A program made the position numbers and the translations under genes. From Eledone cirrhosa (taxonomy: Eukaryota), in contig OZ024745.1 in the NCBI GenBank assembly GCA_964016885.1, positions 52,762,001-52,826,000 of the forward strand: DNA of 64,000 nt. The letters are read 5' to 3'. The notes under the pieces are model-generated. The model saw nothing but the letters and a program-made list of their open reading frames with translations, was not told the origin of the DNA and did no database searches. Positions 12,812-53,524 of this stretch are shown here, one piece after another; within the stretch, counting starts at the first letter, position 1, and each line of letters opens with the position of its first letter.

Positions 12812-15800
12812 AGATAGACATCTTTCTTTATTTGCCACAGGGGTGTAAAAAAACGGGATATTACAAGACGTGACGGCGGGGGTTTTACATAAAAATAACT
12901 TTAAAATTAAAAGATAACAATAAACCATATATAATAAAATAACAATTGAAATCCCTAATAGAGGGAAACGTTACTGCAGGGTTATTTTACACCCCGTGGA
13001 TAGAACAACTCTCAACACCAGGAACACGTTTTGTAGGTGTTCCTGTCTTCCCTCTGTTTATCTTCTTCAACCTATAGATTTATATACAGAGAAAGCCCAT
13101 TCACTCGGGCCATTTCCGCCACATTCACCCACCTGTCAGAGAATTTACTGGGGTGTAGCACCTCTCTCTCCATTCTCACCTTCCTTCTGAAGTGATACTT
13201 AAAGAAGGGGATAAGTTGTTGTCCGGAGAGAAATGTGTTTGCCCTTAGTCCTTTTTAACCTCGTCCACCATATTACATTTTCGCCATAGCCACCAGACAG
13301 AGGAAATCCGCCTCTCCTTCGTTCTTAAATGAAGGCGGCGGGGTGATCCTCATGATGGACTCGGCTGACAGCTGGATGCGTCCCACACGTGACAGTAGCT
13401 ATTTGACATAATTCCACAGGTCGGTCACCCCTGGCCACTGAACAATTGCGTGCAGAACGTTTTCGATGTCCTGCTCGCATCTTGCACAGCTCCTTTTGGC
13501 AGGATCTCTGCCAGGGCGTCCGTAACTGTAGATTTCGTCTCGAACTGGTGGAGCTCCTCAGTAGCACTGCCAGGCCAGAGACCTCTGGGAGTTATCCATA
13601 GGCCCTGGACGGAAAATCCTCCCGAACTCACAGGTCAGTTCATCCTACTGGATGCCTAGAGTTTCCCCTAGAACGTCGTCGCACTTATCCTCCACTAATC
13701 CCCTATAGAATGTCGAAGTGGAGTCTCCGCTGATTGCCGTTTCCACTTCATAGAGGGCTGTGAGCGCCTGTAGGCACTCGAGGTGCCAGGCACCCAGTTT
13801 GGGTCTTCGCTTGACCCAGAACTGCAGCTCTGTTAGTGAGACGAGTTGTGGAAGAGCTTGTCTCACAAACGACAGCCACACCGGTTCACCGGTCAGAAAT
13901 ACCTGGAGATGGCGTAGCCTCAGCGCGTGTTTGCGCATCATCAGCCACGGCATGCCCAACCCTGCGTTAGAATGGTGTTGACAGCAGATGGATCTCCTCA
14001 CCAATGGAGCCTGTTTCTTTCAGAGGAACTTGAAGAATAGGCGTTCCATTTTGGTAAGGTATTCGCGAGGGCAAAGCACGACTGTCAAGCGATAGTAGAT
14101 GACGGACGCTATGTAAGTGGTCGCCACCTCCGCTCGACCTTTCACGGAGCCTTTTCACTTAGCTCACTTCTGGCTGAGTGCAAACACTTTCGCCGTGACC
14201 TCATTCCAGTTCTTGTCAACCTGGATGTCTGGACCAAACCAGACCCCGAGAAATTTCACTGGCCCTTCTGTCCAGCGTTCAACGACACTGTCGGAAGGCA
14301 TGGGTTTGCCTCTCCATGTGCCGAGTTGCAAACCGACATACTTGTTTGGGTTTAGTCTTGCTCCTGTCAACGTTTCGTATCCCTGCAATATGTTGCCGAT
14401 TATCCCGATTTCCAAGGTTTTCAACGCCATTACGCTTATGTCATCGGCATAGGCCCACGTTGCTTTCCGCAGTCCTGGTTCGATCGGCATGCCCTGCAAC
14501 AGCTGCAACTTCCGCAGTAATGGCTCGAGAGTCAGTACATACAGAATGGAGGAGAGAGAGCATCCCTGATGGATGGAACGCATGGTTTGGAATGTCTCTG
14601 ATAGGTAGCCATTCACCTTGAGTGCCGACCAGATGCTGGTGTGCATGGCAGCAATCCAGCCTCTGAAGACGGGACCGAAACCGGCCGACTTGAAAACTGC
14701 TTCCAAGTATTGATGGTCGACCCTATCAAATGCCTTAGACCGATCTAAATTGATCAGAGCCCCACTGAAGCCAGGTTTACACCCACCCTCTCTATGATGT
14801 ATCGCATGAGGTGGAGGTTGTCGTGTATCGACCTGGTCGGGATTGCACACGTTTGCGCTTCCCCTACCAGGTTCTCGACGACAAGCGCCAGCCTCGCTGC
14901 TAACACCTTGGCCAAAATCTTTAACTCTGTGTTGTGCAGAGTTATGGGCCTGAAATTGCTTATCTCATCCCCCTTGTTCTCATCATTCCTGATCAGCGTT
15001 ACTACGGCTCTACATACAGAACTGGGAATCCTCCCGTCCTGCTGCCAGTTGCATTAGACAGCTTCGATGACGCCAGAGAACAAGTCTGGCATGCCTATGT
15101 AAAACTCATAGGGTAGACATCTAAACCGGGTTATTTGCGTTTCCCGCAGCGGCCTAGGGCATCTTCTATTTCGCCCGCTGTGATCGGCCTTTCGCAGCTC
15201 TTCGAGTCGTGGTACGCCGTCGAGGTAGGAGCTGAAATCCATCACCTCGCTCGATATACCGCTTTGCCCGAACAGTTGTGCAAAATGCTCCTGGAAGGCC
15301 GTGCACATCTGCTTGGATTCAAGTATAATGCGTCCATCTTTGTCTTGCAAAGAACGAATTGTGGATTTGTGGCCATCTTTCGCTTCTGCCACTCGGGCCC
15401 AGCTAACAGATTTGGCTCCCTCCTTTCTTAGAGCACCTGTTCTACTTCTGACAATACAACCTTCGTGTTTCACGTTTAAGAACTGGTCTAGTGCCGTTCT
15501 CGCCGCTAGCACGTCAGCAGTACTGCCATTCATAAGTACCTCTTCTATTTTAGCTACCAGTTCTTTTCAGTTTTGTTTGTATCTAAAGCTACTTCCTTGT
15601 TAAATGCTACCGATTCTATTCTAATTGCTCTCTTGACAGAGCTCCACCACCTATTGTTGACGATCGCCTCCGTCAACTGGCACTTAACTAAGGTGCTAAT
15701 CCGCTAACTGTAGGCCTTACGCGCCGGGAGCGACATGTTTAGCTTCCAGTATCCGGATCCCTGTCTATGTGTTCTATCTAGGTTGACTATGCAGGTGACT

Positions 15801-19349: not shown

Positions 19350-20539
19350 TGCTTATTGACACGTTGAGGACACATGTATTTTTAGTCATTATTTTATTGA
19401 ACTTCCATTTCAGAAAATAACTATGCTTATTAATAAAATGAAAAGGCCTGCTGTGATTGTGGCTTTGAAGGCTAAGCATGGGGATTTAGAAATTTCTCGT
19501 TTTCTAAAAGTTGCAAGATCTTTTGTCCACAAGATTCGGTGTGAGTTAGAGAAAGAAGAGGGAAGCGTATTACCTGTATCAAAACGTACAAAACATTCCA
19601 AACGCTCTGATTCTATCAGGACACCTGAATTTATTCTGAGAATCCAGGAAAATCAATGAAGTCAATTGCAAAAAATTTGGTGTGTCAGAAAAAACAATCA
19701 GAAATGTTGTGCATGAAGACATCTGAAACAAATATTACGCAATGAGGAGAGGTCGATTCATGTCAGAATAAACAAGAGAAAAGCGTTTAATCAGATCCAA
19801 AAGACTTTTGGACAAACTTAAAAATCCATCTGAGGATGGTGTGATTTGGTTTTCCTCACATGAGAAAAACTTTGACCAGGACCACAAAACTAACAGAAGA
19901 AATGACAGGTGGCTATGTGCAGAGCCTTCTGATACTCCAAGAGTAATGCACACATAATCTCCTGCAAGTGTCATGGTTTTGGGTGTTGTTAGCAATGAAG
20001 GACATGTGATACCTCCTCACTTTTTTCCACAAGAACTTAGGGTGAAAACTGCTGCATATATTGAGGTTCTGGATAAAGTTGTTAAGCCCTGGATCAACAG
20101 TGTATGCAAAGGAAGGCCTTATGTCTTTCAACAAGATTCTGCACCATCACACAAGGCTCAAATAACACAAGAATGGATGGCTGACAAGTTGCATGATCAC
20201 ATCACCCCAACATTTGGCCTCCTAATTCTCCAGATCTCAATCCACTGGACTACTATGTATAGAGCATCGTTGAGAAAAATGTCAAAAGATTCTTTGAAAG
20301 CCGCCATAATTCGAGTCATGTCCGATATGAACAAGGAACACTTAATCCGAGCTTGCAAACGATTTCAACCCCGCGTAGAGGCTGTTATTGATGCTTATGG
20401 GGGTTATATTGAATGAAATTATTAAATTGATAATTTAGCTTTATGTTTATGCTATTGTCATAAGAATACATTTTTTTTTTAATATGAAAAGCGTGTTTTT
20501 AAAACCATAAATCAGCCCTCAAATACAGTCCGCAACCTG
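19350..20539 (+). mobile_element. Tc1/mariner-superfamily DD37D (maT-like) DNA transposon, decayed; only the 3' TIR is visible
   Basis: Broken transposase 19423-20416: WFSSHEKNF, RNDRWL, VMVLGVVS, FQQDSAPSH and, after a frameshift, WPPNSPDLNPLDYY, giving 37 residues between the 2nd and 3rd D. The right end ...CAGTCCGCAACCTG|TA abuts (TA)n. Confidence 0.88.
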
Positions 20540-23775: not shown

Positions 23776-23873
23776 ATATAACGAAAGATTAGTATGGTTC
23801 GTTGATTACTCAATGAATAGAATTTCACAATAGATTAGAAGCACTCAACAAAAACGTTTTCCTGGAGTATTTA

Positions 23874-24210
23874 ATATTATTCAAATTATTAATAAATGAA
23901 AAATATTCTCATAATCAAAATATATACTTTATTATACACATTTCAAAGGTACTGTATTGTTTTTTCAGTACGTCCTCATCAGACAAAATATATGATTTGA
24001 TATATGACATACCGCTACGGTCTTGATTATTCAATTCCAGTATTGGCAGTACTGGAATTGAATAATCAAGACCGTAGCGGTATGTCATATATGAAATCAT
24101 ATATTTTGTCTGATGAGGACGTACTGAAAAGACGACACAGTACCTTGGAAATATGTATAATAAAGAATATATTTTGATTATGAGAATATTTATCATTTGT
24201 TAATATTTTG

Positions 24211-24217
<7 letters not shown>
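23874..24217. repeat. Long inverted repeat (~170-bp arms), each arm with a CUGAUGA...GAAA hammerhead-like motif
   Basis: Centre ~24046. The + arm has CTGATGA (24110-24116), a GTACTG/CAGTAC stem and GAAATATGTA (24148-). The mirror copy lies on the - strand at ~23935-23982. Confidence 0.85.
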
Positions 24218-24306
<89 letters not shown>

Positions 24307-25599: not shown

Positions 25600-25933
25600 A
25601 ACATAGAAATAAAAATAGAATCTACACACAGAAAAGACGCAAATGTTTAGACAAATCACAGAGGCAATAAACATAAATGAACTCCAAAAAAATTAAATAG
25701 AAAACATGAGTGGAACAGCAACAGCTCAACTTACAATTAAGGACAAAATGAAAACACACACGCACATAGAACAAACAACCAACCAGTAACATGTAAATAA
25801 ACACATAAATAAACGAATATAACAGACACCCGGATGTAACCCATGCAAAAGTAAGCACACAACACACACACAAAAACAAGATGGCGTAGGACAGAACAAA
25901 GGAGAGGCACACAAACAAAGAAAAGAATCCCCA

Positions 25934-25976
25934 GTCACTGAAGAGGTCACAAAATGCGTGACGAAAGAACTTTGAC
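25934..25976 (+). ncRNA. Minimal type I hammerhead ribozyme (PLE pLTR type)
   Basis: GTCA-CTGAAGA-G-GTCAC aaaatgc GTGAC-GAAA-G aa C TT-TGAC: stem I GTCA/TGAC, 5-bp stem II, minimal stem III, CUU triplet. Confidence 0.72.
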
Positions 25977-26146
25977 AATATATAAACAATCATCTGGTTG
26001 TGGAACCAACCAACCGGAAATTTATAAATTCCTAAATTTATAAATTTATTACAATAAATTGAAATGAAGGCAACTGGTGCGTGTATTTCTTATTGGCAAC
26101 ATGACCCTCCCAAAGTATAACAATATCGGTTTCAACACACAAATTA

Positions 26147-27064: not shown

Positions 27065-27850
27065 GTGCCACCAAAATCTCCTCCTTCGATGTCTATCGCA
27101 CAAAATTATATTTTAATCCACCTCTCTGAATCTACTAAAACCAAACTATCTACCACGAAACCGCCTCTCCTATCCCACTCTCTATATCTAAGACTAATAC
27201 ACTCTCTACCTCTCTATAAATATTTACACTTATCTTTACCAGTCCCATTCTGTATATCAATTAACATCAAATTCTCCCAATCCATGTATCTACTACTCGG
27301 CAATCTCCCAATATCCCTATCTGCATATCTACAACCACCAAACTCTCCTCCTCTCTATATTTACTACTCAGTACACTCTACCAACACTCCTCTCTATATC
27401 AATTAACACCAAATTCTCCCACTCTCTATATCTAGAACACGGAACTCTCTCCCAACCCCCTCACTATATCAATTGCCACCAAACTATCCACTCTCTATAT
27501 CTACCTTACAAGACTCTCTCATCCCCTATCATTCTATGCATCCCTGCCAAACATTCCCCTTATCTATATCAATCCTCTCACTCTACTTATTAACACCAAA
27601 CTCTCCCCCTCGCTATATCTTCTACACGGAACCCTCTTTCAATCTCACTCTCTATATCAATTAAACGCCAAACTCTCCCTCTCTCTATATCTACTACATA
27701 AATGCTACTCTCTATATCAATAAACATTAATCTCTCCCTCTCTATATATCTAATATACAACAAACTCTCCCTACCTCCCACTCTACATCAATTACCTACA
27801 AACTCTCCACATTTCTATATCTATATTTATCCTTCCCATCTCTCTATACA
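27065..27850 (+). repeat. Degenerate minisatellite array (~35/71-bp CT-rich units: CTCTCTATATCTAC...CCAAACTCTCC)
   Basis: Recurrent CTCTCTATATC(T/A)A and CCAAA(C/T)TCTCC motifs, related to the reverse-complement array at 49970-50760. Confidence 0.75.
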
Positions 27851-33132: not shown

Positions 33133-33182
33133 AAATAAAGTTAAATAAAAAGTCAAATGTTTCAAATTTAGCTTCGTTTATT

Positions 33183-33237
33183 ACTGCTATATATATTTCA
33201 GTGACAGCCATCTTTGGCTGTGACCTCTTCAGGCAGT
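33183..33237 (-). ncRNA. Type I hammerhead ribozyme with intact core
   Basis: Minus strand: ACTGC-CTGAAGA-GGTCACAGCC aaagat GGCTGTCACT-GAAA-T ATAT ATA-GCAGT, then AATAAA. Stem I is 5 bp, stem II has ACAGCC/GGCTGT, stem III is palindromic, triplet AUA. Lies in a ~225-bp insert between two (TA)n tracts. Confidence 0.75.
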
Positions 33238-33350
33238 TTGAATTAGTGTGGTATAGACAAGTACATGTGTTGTTGAGGTGTATAATTTTGTCAATACTCT
33301 GATATGCCCAGTTCCTGGTTGGGTTGTTATTTCACTGAGGAACTGGAATC

Positions 33351-40035: not shown

Positions 40036-40515
40036 TCGTGTGTATGGGTGTGTGTGTATGTGTGTGTGTGTGTGTGTGTGTGTACGTGTGTGTGTGTGTG
40101 TGTGTGCGTGTGTGTGTGTGTGTGTGTGTGCGTGTAGCGTAGATATACAATACAACAGGAGGAATATAATAGTACCACTGACGATGATGAAGATGTGCAG
40201 AACTTTGTTAGACTATATATATGTGTTTGTGTCTATATTGTATCTGTATTTTTGACCGTTGGTCAGTAAATGGTATATACATACATACACACATATATAT
40301 ATATATGTACGTATGGATTTACCGAATATTTATTTAGTTAACATTTATTATAATACTAAGAGTGAGAAATGAAATTTCGTTTCATTTTTTCCGTCTATCG
40401 TTTTCGGTACCCCGGCCGACTAACTCACTCGATATGCAAATTAGGCTGCTCAGCCGTTAATATGCATACGGAAAGTATATACTTTCAGACGTTCAATCAT
40501 CTGGCAGGATGGTAT

Positions 40516-40557
40516 ACGATGCTGACGATAGCTAATAAGTTGAAATTTTTACATCGT
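40516..40557 (+). ncRNA. Type I hammerhead ribozyme, stem III mutated
   Basis: ACGATG-CTGACGA-TAGCT aata AGTT-GAAA-TTTTTA-CATCGT. Confidence 0.6.
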
Positions 40558-40944
40558 TCCTTTGTCAGTGTTGAACAAAAGAGTAACGATGGTTGCTAAA
40601 CACTGTACGGCTTACTTCGGGATGTTTGTTTACAAACACACCGAGAATTATAATAAATGTTCGGTAAATCCATACGTACATATATATATGTGTGCATGTA
40701 TGTATATATATATACATACTACTGTACGTCTGTATACATATATGTATGTACGTTTACATACTTATATTTAAGTAACAGCTGTACTAAGAGTGAGAAATGA
40801 AATTTCGTTTCATTTTTTCCGTTTATCGTTTTCGGTGCGCCCGGCCGATTAACTCACTCGATATGCAAATTAGGCTGCTCAGCCGTTAATATGCATACGG
40901 AAAGTATATACTTTCAGATGTTCAATCATCTGGCAGGAAGGTAT

Positions 40945-40987
40945 ATGATGCTGACGATAGCTAATAAACTTGAAACTAGTACATCGT
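40945..40987 (+). ncRNA. Type I minimal hammerhead ribozyme
   Basis: ATGATG-CTGACGA-TAGCT aata AACTT-GAAA-CTAGTA-CATCGT. Full core, one stem II mismatch, GUA triplet (predicted cut after 40981). Confidence 0.8.
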
Positions 40988-41254
40988 TCCTTTGTCAGTG
41001 TTGAACAAAAGAGCAACGATGGTTGCTAACTACTATAAGGCTTAATTCGGGATGTTTGTTTAAAAACACACCGAGAATTATAATAAATGTACGGAAATCC
41101 ATACGTATATATATATATGTGTGCATGTATGTATATATACATACTACTGTACGTATGTATACATATATGTATGTACGTATACATACTTATATTTAAGTAA
41201 CAGCCGTACTAAGAGCGAGAAATGAAATTTCGTTTCATTGTTTCCGTTTATATT

Positions 41255-49969: not shown

Positions 49970-50875
49970 TATAGAGAGGCGGGGTGCGATTAATTGTAAT
50001 AGAGATGGGTGTAGGGATAGAGTGTTGTATGCTTGATGTAGAGAAGGGGAGAGTTTGGTTGTAATGAATGGAGTGAGAGAATTGATAGAGATAGATATTG
50101 ATAGATATAGAGAGGGAGGAGTTTGGTAATGATGGATAGAGTGAGAGAGAATAAGAGAGAGTGTTGTATGTTAGATATAGAGAGGAGTATAGTTTGGTGA
50201 TAACTGATATAGAAAGGGTGAATGGGAGAGAGTGTTGTGTGGTAGATATAGAGAGGAGTATAGTTTGGTGATAACTGATATAGAAAGGGTGAATGGGAGA
50301 GAGTGTTGTGTGGTAGATATAGAGAGGAGTATAGTTTGGTGATAACTGATATAGAAAGGGTGAATGGGAGAGAGTGTTGTGTGGTAGATATAGAGAGTGT
50401 GATAGTTTGGTGATAACTGATATAGATAGGGCGTGTCTGAGACAGTGCTGTATGGTAGCTATAGAAGTGGGGTTCTGTAGTGATGTAGTTTTTTGAGTTA
50501 GAGGGAATGAGAGAGATTGTTGTATGGTAGATATAGAGAGGGGGAGAGTTTGATGGGAATTGATATAGTGAGGATGGTTAAGGGAGTACGCTGCATATTA
50601 GATATAGAGAGGGGAGAGCTTGATGTTTATTGATATAGAGAGGGGCATTGGGAGAGAGTTCCGTGTAATAGATATAGAGAGGGTGAGAGTTTGGTGCTAA
50701 TTGATATAGAGAGAGGGAGATTGGGAGAATATATGATATAATTGATGTAGAGAGGGGCACCGTTTCGACAGCTAGATCCGAACAGTTCGGAGCTCAGCCG
50801 TCGGAGTCCTGAATCTGTTCATATTATCAACTCTACTACTCTAAGTATCAAGTACTCTAGTATGGTATGGTCCAT
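49970..50875 (-). repeat. 71-bp minisatellite array joined to a head related to the 32.3/49.4-kb element
   Basis: Near-perfect period of 71 (AGTGTTGTG at 50231, 50302, 50373). Reverse complement of 50760-50875 reads GGACCATA...AGAGTACTTGATACTTAGAGTAGTAGAGT...CCGACGGCTGAGCTC...GTCGAAACGG. Confidence 0.8.
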
Positions 50876-51604: not shown

Positions 51605-52589
51605 CAATTTAAATGCAGAGACTTCAATAGCTATTGCATTTTTATATTTTCTTTCCATATAGAATCAAAGAAGCGACTTTGAAAAACACCAGTCAGCAAA
51701 AATAAGTTTATGAAATATCGTGTTTAGGTCAATGGAGATTTTAGCGTAAACATTTCCCTGACATCCGTCAAACAAGACAACATGATAGAAATTGCAAATT
51801 ATATTGGAAATGTGTCCGAAGAAGTTTGAAAGAAAATTAAATGATGAAAGATAATAAGTCGTGCTTCTAATACGAGCATTAAATAACTGATAAAGTTGGT
51901 GTGTTCTGTCTCAGAATCAGCTTTGAAGTTACTAGGAGCGGTTTATTAAAGAGCAAACTTTCGGAGACGGATAAATAATGGATCGTTTCAGGTCTGATGA
52001 CATAGTGTGAGACTTTATAATTGCATATGCTTGTGTATTCAAGTATTAATCACCAATCTATTTCCGTCTTATTGTCTCCTTATAAATGTATTCTATCCAC
52101 CTCTGTTGCTGTGTTTCTTCTATTTCTCTTGTCTACCCTCCCAGATATCCGTCTAATGGCATTATACACACACACACACAAACATATATATATATATGTA
52201 TATATATATACCATACATATGTGTCTTAGGTGTATGTATAAGTGTGTGTGAGTAGGTGTGTGTATTTGCGTGCGTGTGTGTTGTTATGTGTGTGTGCGTG
52301 CATGTAGATATATTGTTGAATGTGTACAGAATAACACATTCTTTGAAACATATCTGAAGTTATCTAACGCCTGTATATGTACGTAGAATACATAATTAGA
52401 CTTCCAAACTGACCATATATCAACAAATATATCATAGAGGATTACATATATATACATACATTATATATATATAATAGCGTAAGGTCTTCGAAATGCTTTT
52501 AATTAAGCATACAGTGTATTGCAAAATACACTATATATACATCCATATACATATATATATATATATATGAATTATATATATATACATAC

Positions 52590-52642
<53 letters not shown>

Positions 52643-52645
<3 letters not shown>

Positions 52646-53265
52646 TTGAAAAGAATGAAACAAAATTTCATTTCTCACTCTTAGTACGGCTGATACTTAA
52701 ATGTAAGTATGTATGTATATGTACATACATATATGTATACAGACCTACAGTAGTATGTATATATACACATACATGCACACACATATATATGTACGTATGG
52801 GTTTACCGAACATTTATTATAATGTTCGGATTGTTTATAAGCAAATAGCCCGAATTACGCCGTACAGTGTTCAGGCAACCATCATCGCCTATTTGTTCAA
52901 CACTGACACAGGAACGATGTACTAGTTTCAAGCTTATTAGCTATCGTCAGCATCGTATACCTTCCTGCCAGATGATTGAACGTCTGAAAGTATATAATTT
53001 CCTTATGCATATTGACCGCTGAGCAGCCTAATTTGCATATCGAGTGAGTTAGTCGGCCAGGCGCACCGAAAACGATAAATGGAAAAGAGTGAAACGAAAT
53101 TTCATTTCTCACTCTTAGTACGGCTGATACTTAAATGTAAGTATGTATGTATACGTACATACGTATATGTATACAGACGTACATTGGTATGTATATATAT
53201 ATATATATATATATACATACATGAACACATATATATATGTACGTATGGGTTTACCGAACATTTAT
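52643..53265 (-). mobile_element. Second locus of the ~430-bp HHR repeat (1.4 units), between (TA)n tracts
   Basis: Reverse complement of the 40.3-41.3-kb unit. Period 434 (TTAGTACGG at 52681 and 53115). HHR at 52914-52956. Confidence 0.85.
52914..52956 (-). ncRNA. Type I minimal hammerhead ribozyme, fully intact
   Basis: Minus strand: ACGATG-CTGACGA-T-AGCT aata AGCT-T-GAAA-C TA GTA-CATCGT. 6-bp stem I, 4-bp stem II, palindromic ACUAGU stem III, GUA triplet. Confidence 0.88.
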
Positions 53266-53323
53266 ATATATACACATATATATAAACATATAAATACATA
53301 TATATATATATACATATGCATGC

Positions 53324-53396
<73 letters not shown>

Positions 53397-53422
53397 TATA
53401 TAATATATATATATATATATAA

Positions 53423-53524
<102 letters not shown>

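Follow-up and report, generated by a model that had tools for sequence, protein, structure and literature searches.

A truncated copy of a high-copy Eledone cirrhosa retrozyme family with a likely Penelope-like route of insertion

A short minus-strand repeat in the genome of Eledone cirrhosa is likely a 5′-truncated, single-ribozyme copy of a ~430-bp non-LTR retrozyme, inserted by a Penelope-like reverse transcriptase (RT)/GIY-YIG protein, probably of the Neptune type. The copy lies in a 64,000-nt stretch of contig OZ024745.1 (assembly GCA_964016885.1), hereafter the window, whose first letter is position 1. Its features, and a second locus of the same family, are:

52641-53265, minus strand: retrozyme copy spanning 1.43 monomers of 434 bp, with a variable (truncated) 5′ end at ~53265 and a fixed 3′ end at ~52641
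52914-52956, minus strand: type I hammerhead, assigned from sequence and folding
52908-52968, minus strand: stem I extension seen in the fold, comprising a 6-nt bulge (52962-52957) and an outer helix (52968-52963 with 52913-52908)
53075-53265, minus strand: 5′ overlap, a pseudo-LTR-like redundancy with 52641-52831
52641-52703, minus strand: Penelope-type 'tail' of ~63 nt with a small hairpin and a pyrimidine run, bounded by the two fixed 3′ ends, termed site S (after ~52704) and site T (~52641)
53137-53075, minus strand: second copy of the tail
52532-52642, no strand: (TA)n target tract adjoining the copy's 3′ end
53266-53524, no strand: (TA)n tract at the 5′ end of the copy, masking any target-site duplication
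40274-41251, plus strand: second family locus, in which ~2.1 units face a short inverted arm (~40274-40352) head-to-head; its 3′ end lies at site T

The original prediction of a minus-strand copy with period 434 (52641/53075), lying opposite in orientation to a locus ~11 kb away, was correct: the 40274-41251 locus is inverted relative to it at a separation of 11.8 kb, with 85-88% identity. The terminal redundancy is also real, although the overlap of the ends measures ~188-191 nt and not the proposed ~175 bp. Aligned against 52641-52831, the 53075-53265 segment differs at 11 of 174 columns, apart from a 14-nt expansion of TA; the mismatches would correspond to about 3% change per end, provided that both ends began identical. 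Beyond the TA tract, the left flank (52473-52560) is the end of another repeat that adjoins the retrozyme in 10 of 199 fetched loci at 92-96% identity, likely through nesting in a shared TA target.

All elements of the predicted hammerhead were found. Stem I has 6 bp (ACGAUG/CAUCGU, 52956-52951 with 52919-52914), CUGACGA occupies 52950-52944 and GAAA 52929-52926, the 4-bp stem II (AGCU/AGCU) carries an AAUA loop, stem III is the palindrome ACUAGU, and the predicted cut, at a GUA triplet, falls between 52920 and 52919; the canonical CUGANGA, GAAA, U16.1 and H17 are thus all present within 52914-52956. The description of this ribozyme as textbook-intact with a perfect core did not stand. Pair 10.1/11.1, which closes stem II (52943/52930), is U·U and not G-C or R-Y, and Rfam hammerhead models gave no match to 52840-53100 up to E=10, nor a hammerhead among the 150 of 237 matches listed for the whole window; Rfam miRNA matches in the window were microsatellite-driven, below the gathering score, and were rejected. 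In the accessible text of Cervera and de la Peña 2014 (PMC4209133), G10.1-C11.1 is called highly conserved, and the mismatch may weaken the ribozyme. A U·U mismatch likewise occurs at the foot of helix II in axolotl HHR_Amex2; its monomer is reported to reach 22% cleavage in one hour, and its dimer to cleave much better (PMC7229834). The stem I extension probably contacts loop II, judging from the fold; its outer pairs are kept only in part among copies, disregarding pairs 304:353 and 303:354, which were set out of register.

In the minimum-free-energy (MFE) fold of the monomeric ribozyme, C3-U4-G5 pair with stem III in an inactive form (z -1.07), and the MFE cofold of two ribozymes is a stem II kissing/duplex structure, not the active dimer; a duplex of the stem III palindrome amounts to only -4.8 kcal/mol. 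Modelled folding neither shows nor excludes an active dimer. The proposal that the palindromic stem III allows two hammerheads to pair before cleavage is compatible with these folds and with the literature (PMC4209133, PMC7229834; the dimer model is repeated in PMC6765202), yet it finds no dimer in cis in this copy. The copy contains one ribozyme and no recognisable inverted arm, and because the ribozyme is single, neither cis dimerisation nor release of a circle is possible from it. Two consecutive ribozyme-bearing units, by which Li, Clavereau and Pollet 2026 (10.64898/2026.07.22.740005) define 'active' elements, are absent here, which weakens the claim for this copy and not for the family; unless paired in trans, the copy is a dead end and an ordinary decaying insertion.

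The family proved mobile far beyond the two loci from which mobility had been proposed. Exact matches to a 33-place ribozyme pattern number 11,708 in the 3.0-Gb, 1,796-contig genome (reversed control, 0), a first look gave 1,931 candidates of the family, and an exact 30-mer outside the ribozyme occurs 1,530 times, fewer than the ribozyme pattern because subfamilies differ in this anchor. We analysed 154 loci (30 found by BLAST, 84 by anchor and 40 by ribozyme pattern) after removing repeat loci that occupied another locus's place (L035, L048, L049, L051, L053 and L057); the anchor-selected sample under-represents the commonest subfamilies, and the fetched anchor and ribozyme loci are all on contig C1. 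At least two ribozymes on one strand occur in 34 of these loci and at most one in the other 120, with up to five in tandem. Cut-to-cut monomers (n = 36) span 414-511 nt, mostly 419-438, with GC of 0.33-0.37 in the 8 measured; no real open reading frame (ORF) was found in the unit. All eight monomers folded as circles, out of the 36, gave z from -4.4 to -12.7 against 25 dinucleotide shuffles each, to which TA/CA-rich palindromic parts contribute. Judged by sequence criteria, the family classes as a non-LTR retrozyme.

The departure at 10.1/11.1 extends across the family: a purine at 10.1 occurs in 78 of the 11,708 pattern matches, and among 194 aligned units the pair is U·U in 145, C·A in 36 and C·G in 4. 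Position 17 is A in 130 units and U in 64, and stem I pair 313:349 is A-U in 85, G·U in 54 and U·G in 38, subfamily states that represent a few inherited events and not 194 independent ones. All 11 core bases are kept in 50 of 67 anchor-selected copies. At G000:C1:96.98-97.04 Mb, many same-strand matches to ribozyme variants lie at multiples of ~420 bp; we read it as a long tandem array of the family and a candidate source locus.

The ends of these insertions carry the evidence on how they were made. Across the 154 loci, 100 ends at site T lead into TA and 6 into other sequence, and at site S, ~63 nt upstream, 74 lead into TA and 8 elsewhere; as regards target-site duplication, the ends lie within TA tracts. 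The 5′ ends are spread round the unit: 6 of 141 are close to the cleavage site. Of 107 fixed-end arms, 83 continue >40 nt beyond that site. Because arms run past the cleavage site and 5′ ends are scattered, the template would have been a circle or an uncut multimer, which yield identical genomic copies. Head-to-head inverted arms are present in 44 of 84 anchor-selected loci. When inverted loci with TA-flanked ends on both strands were classified, 39 of 40 had one S and one T end (expected 19.6, p=1.6e-11), the tail therefore being on a single arm, and the remaining locus was TT. These counts use a corrected motif; in the first version, the T motif was also hit by the tail hairpin's other strand, and the tally was 35 ST and 7 TT. 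A cruder tally from BLAST ends paired S with T in 17 of the 21 pairs whose ends were both fixed, with an unclassified end in 22 further pairs. An inverted truncated arm and a tail at one end are described as features of Penelope elements (Craig et al. 10.1101/2021.04.23.441226; PMC3846280), and Frangieh et al. (PMC11167929) identify the tail as the sequence separating two internal RT start sites and report that a Penelope protein nicks AT-rich DNA on either strand and extends both. In the inversion with its one-sided tail, the retrozyme thus bears a direct fingerprint of insertion by Penelope machinery.

The genome contains 10,597 GIY-YIG candidates, and all seven long GIY-YIG ORFs inspected combine an RT with a C-terminal nuclease; six of the seven have a Neptune-type CxxCxxC linker. 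One young Neptune-type family with this linker (L141, L142, L146, L149, L150 and L152; open frames of 844-938 aa) served as a positive control: its insertions also end in (TA)n at two places separated by ~64 nt, and in all 5 of the 5 loci where both strands could be classified each arm has a different one of the two ends. This is the architecture of the retrozyme, and the family is a candidate partner. Direct resemblance is weak: the retrozyme tail scored 43.5-46, ranking 3-4 among 1,140 junctions, below two unrelated ones, and the end that it resembles in the Neptune family is the first and not the last. The Neptune-type elements carry their own minimal hammerhead, with UUGAAAA instead of CUGANGA and a palindromic stem III, ACCGGU; this U3/A8 core variant is described for Schistosoma (PMC4209133).

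The window holds further elements. A second hammerhead family at 25930-25985 (plus strand) is of the minimal Penelope type, with a bulged G, a 5-bp stem II and a 4-bp stem I, and the repeat around it matches 13 of the 199 fetched loci; a third at ~33175-33240 (minus strand), whose stem II is long and whose stem III is an AT palindrome, has matches in 8 of the 199. The head-to-head inverted repeat at 23850-24220 has a long central palindrome, ends in TA and bears a CUGAUGA/GAAA-like motif in each arm; its sequence suggests that it is probably another short Penelope-mobilised element. Broken LINE-like RT frames lie at 13600-15600 (minus strand), oppositely oriented arrays of a 71-bp minisatellite at 27253-27520 and 50028-50757, and a 152-aa frame at 19958-20416 (plus strand), which we take to resemble the end of a mariner/Tc1-type transposase.

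Two other accounts of mobilisation were weighed. The unit could be a pseudo-LTR belonging to an autonomous Penelope-like element, of which the copies would be 5′-truncated remains, given that every end feature is that of Penelope pseudo-LTRs and that Li et al. 2026 (10.64898/2026.07.22.740005) derive retrozymes from pseudo-LTRs. What lies upstream of a unit, however, is more unit (the 36 cut-to-cut monomers and up to five tandem ribozymes), no ORF with RT and GIY-YIG endonuclease was found in the retrozyme unit, and tblastn with six Penelope ORFs matched 4 element loci only, leaving the window unmatched. The retrozyme copies near GIY-YIG ORFs at L151 and L152 were rejected as candidate associations, being nested insertions that sit behind a TA tract past the ORF family's own end, and the retrozyme hammerhead has the canonical 6/4-bp build and not the minimal Penelope one. 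We regard the pseudo-LTR origin as improbable.

We likewise give little credence to a Naiad element or a twin-priming LINE, instead of a Penelope-like element with a C-terminal endonuclease, as the mobiliser. The window does contain a LINE-like RT fragment (14164-15566), but the retrozyme carries neither a poly(A) tail nor a simple-repeat tail of its own, and twin priming, to our knowledge, does not produce two fixed ends divided one per arm; a LINE is unlikely. A Naiad may yet be the mobiliser: Naiads favour (TA)n targets, and their insertions show tails as well as inversions (10.1101/2021.04.23.441226), yet they lack hammerheads, and the nuclease is C-terminal in all seven GIY-YIG ORFs inspected.

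The original prediction had also proposed that the ribozyme is better preserved than the surrounding unit and hence under selection. Divergence at 52820-52895 is indeed 21-22% relative to the 40-kb locus, but the 43-nt ribozyme differs from the two units there by 9.3% and 4.7%, and conservation is just as high in its 5′ flank (7.5% different) and directly 3′ of it (5.6%); the core had seemed better kept because it was compared with the most variable block. Genome-wide, among otherwise intact 35-mers, G12 is mutated in 317 copies versus 266 at a TTGA control outside the ribozyme, and A13 in 126 versus 129 at a context-matched control (pooled, 443 versus 395). Comparing copies inside and outside the hammerhead, the check proposed at the outset, therefore shows no better preservation of the core, and inserted copies decay neutrally at G12 and A13.

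A mild core deficit does appear in a small sample of 67 copies picked regardless of ribozyme (17 of 84 anchor loci did not span the tested stretch and were omitted). Relative to the subfamily majority, 14 of 666 core positions changed versus 380 of 9,317 outside (p=0.01; 61 clustered copies); base-matched, 16 core changes were observed against 24 expected (p=0.054), and with singletons only, 8 of 721 compared with 132 of 10,129 (p=0.86). The genome-wide, context-matched count is the stronger test. Host selection on inserted copies could also draw on the ribozyme of the 52641-53265 copy, which equals the family majority at 43 of 43 positions. Against this, an intact 43-mer is common at ~3% change per site, and both hammerheads of the 40-kb locus (40522 and 40951) have stem damage. 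On average, host selection is already contradicted by the counts, and we hold it to be highly improbable. Constraint is visible between subfamilies only: the core is unchanged, with 0 of 23 subfamily-diagnostic columns falling within its 11 positions (p=0.25 by itself), and stem I changes retain pairing, one pair alternating among A-U, G·U and U·G. The remaining constraint lies on the propagating source elements, as expected for any retrozyme.

The family resembles the metazoan non-LTR retrozymes of coral, Mytilus and axolotl (PMC7229834) in its type I hammerhead, its low-GC, non-coding tandem unit (150-450 bp in that group), its thousands of copies and its strongly self-paired monomer. It differs in consisting mostly of dispersed one- to two-unit copies with strict (TA)n targeting, and in having 3′ ends fixed at two sites together with head-to-head inversions, neither of which is described in the accessible text of that paper. 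With Penelope-like elements (Neptune clade; Poseidon PAc, PMC11167929) it shares partial tandems, an inverted 5′-truncated arm, an optional tail at one end, an AT-rich or microsatellite target and a hammerhead with palindromic stem III; unlike them, it lacks an ORF, has a canonical and not a minimal hammerhead, and has a tail of ~63 nt versus the 30-40 bp given in the Penelope literature consulted. A literature search covering openly available articles and preprint main texts retrieved no description of this family, nor of the tail and inversion signature on any retrozyme.

Which enzyme moves animal retrozymes is a question that still rests on co-occurrence and sequence likeness. LINEs or Penelope elements are named as candidates in PMC7229834, and Li et al. 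2026 conclude that animal retrozymes are non-autonomous Penelope derivatives, in a preprint whose available text calls its own life-cycle evidence limited. Our conclusion on the mobiliser agrees with theirs, and their monomers correspond to the single-ribozyme copies seen here; their basis is co-occurrence and pseudo-LTR similarity in 35 genomes, none of them molluscan, whereas ours is insertion anatomy. The present case places a high-copy retrozyme with the Penelope-specific pattern of tail and inversion beside an autonomous family with the same ends.

In the cycle that we propose, loci with at least two units would be transcribed, and two hammerheads would pair through the ACUAGU palindrome and then cut; the monomer would be ligated into a circle, or the RNA would remain an uncut multimer. 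A Penelope protein would nick (TA)n and start reverse transcription inside the RNA at either of the two sites ~63 nt apart, a mechanism modelled on PMC11167929 and matching the observed ends, and would read through the ribozyme site to give the more-than-unit copies found. Priming of the second target strand, often from the other site, could then produce the observed head-to-head inserts with a tail on one arm. Selection would act on the source elements, and inserted copies, including that at 52641-53265, would decay neutrally. Against a working ribozyme in this cycle, the accessible text of Li et al. 2026 (10.64898/2026.07.22.740005) reports that 8 of 9 predicted Xenopus retrozymes showed no cleavage, and the Anolis Penelope ribozyme is described as dispensable for insertion in vitro.

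We see an even chance that the following, more specific reading is right: the family's thousands of insertions bear the whole Penelope priming signature, in that a single Penelope ribonucleoprotein primes both (TA)n strands from a pair of fixed sites, separated by ~63 nt, in a circular RNA of ~430 nt, with the unit as the minimal Neptune-type cis signal and the family-wide 10.1/11.1 mismatch tuning the ribozyme to dimer- or protein-assisted cutting. The unit offers a system that can be tested in vitro, with a 430-nt template, two predicted start sites and a (TA)n target. If true, the minimal-cis-signal reading would settle which machinery moves animal retrozymes.
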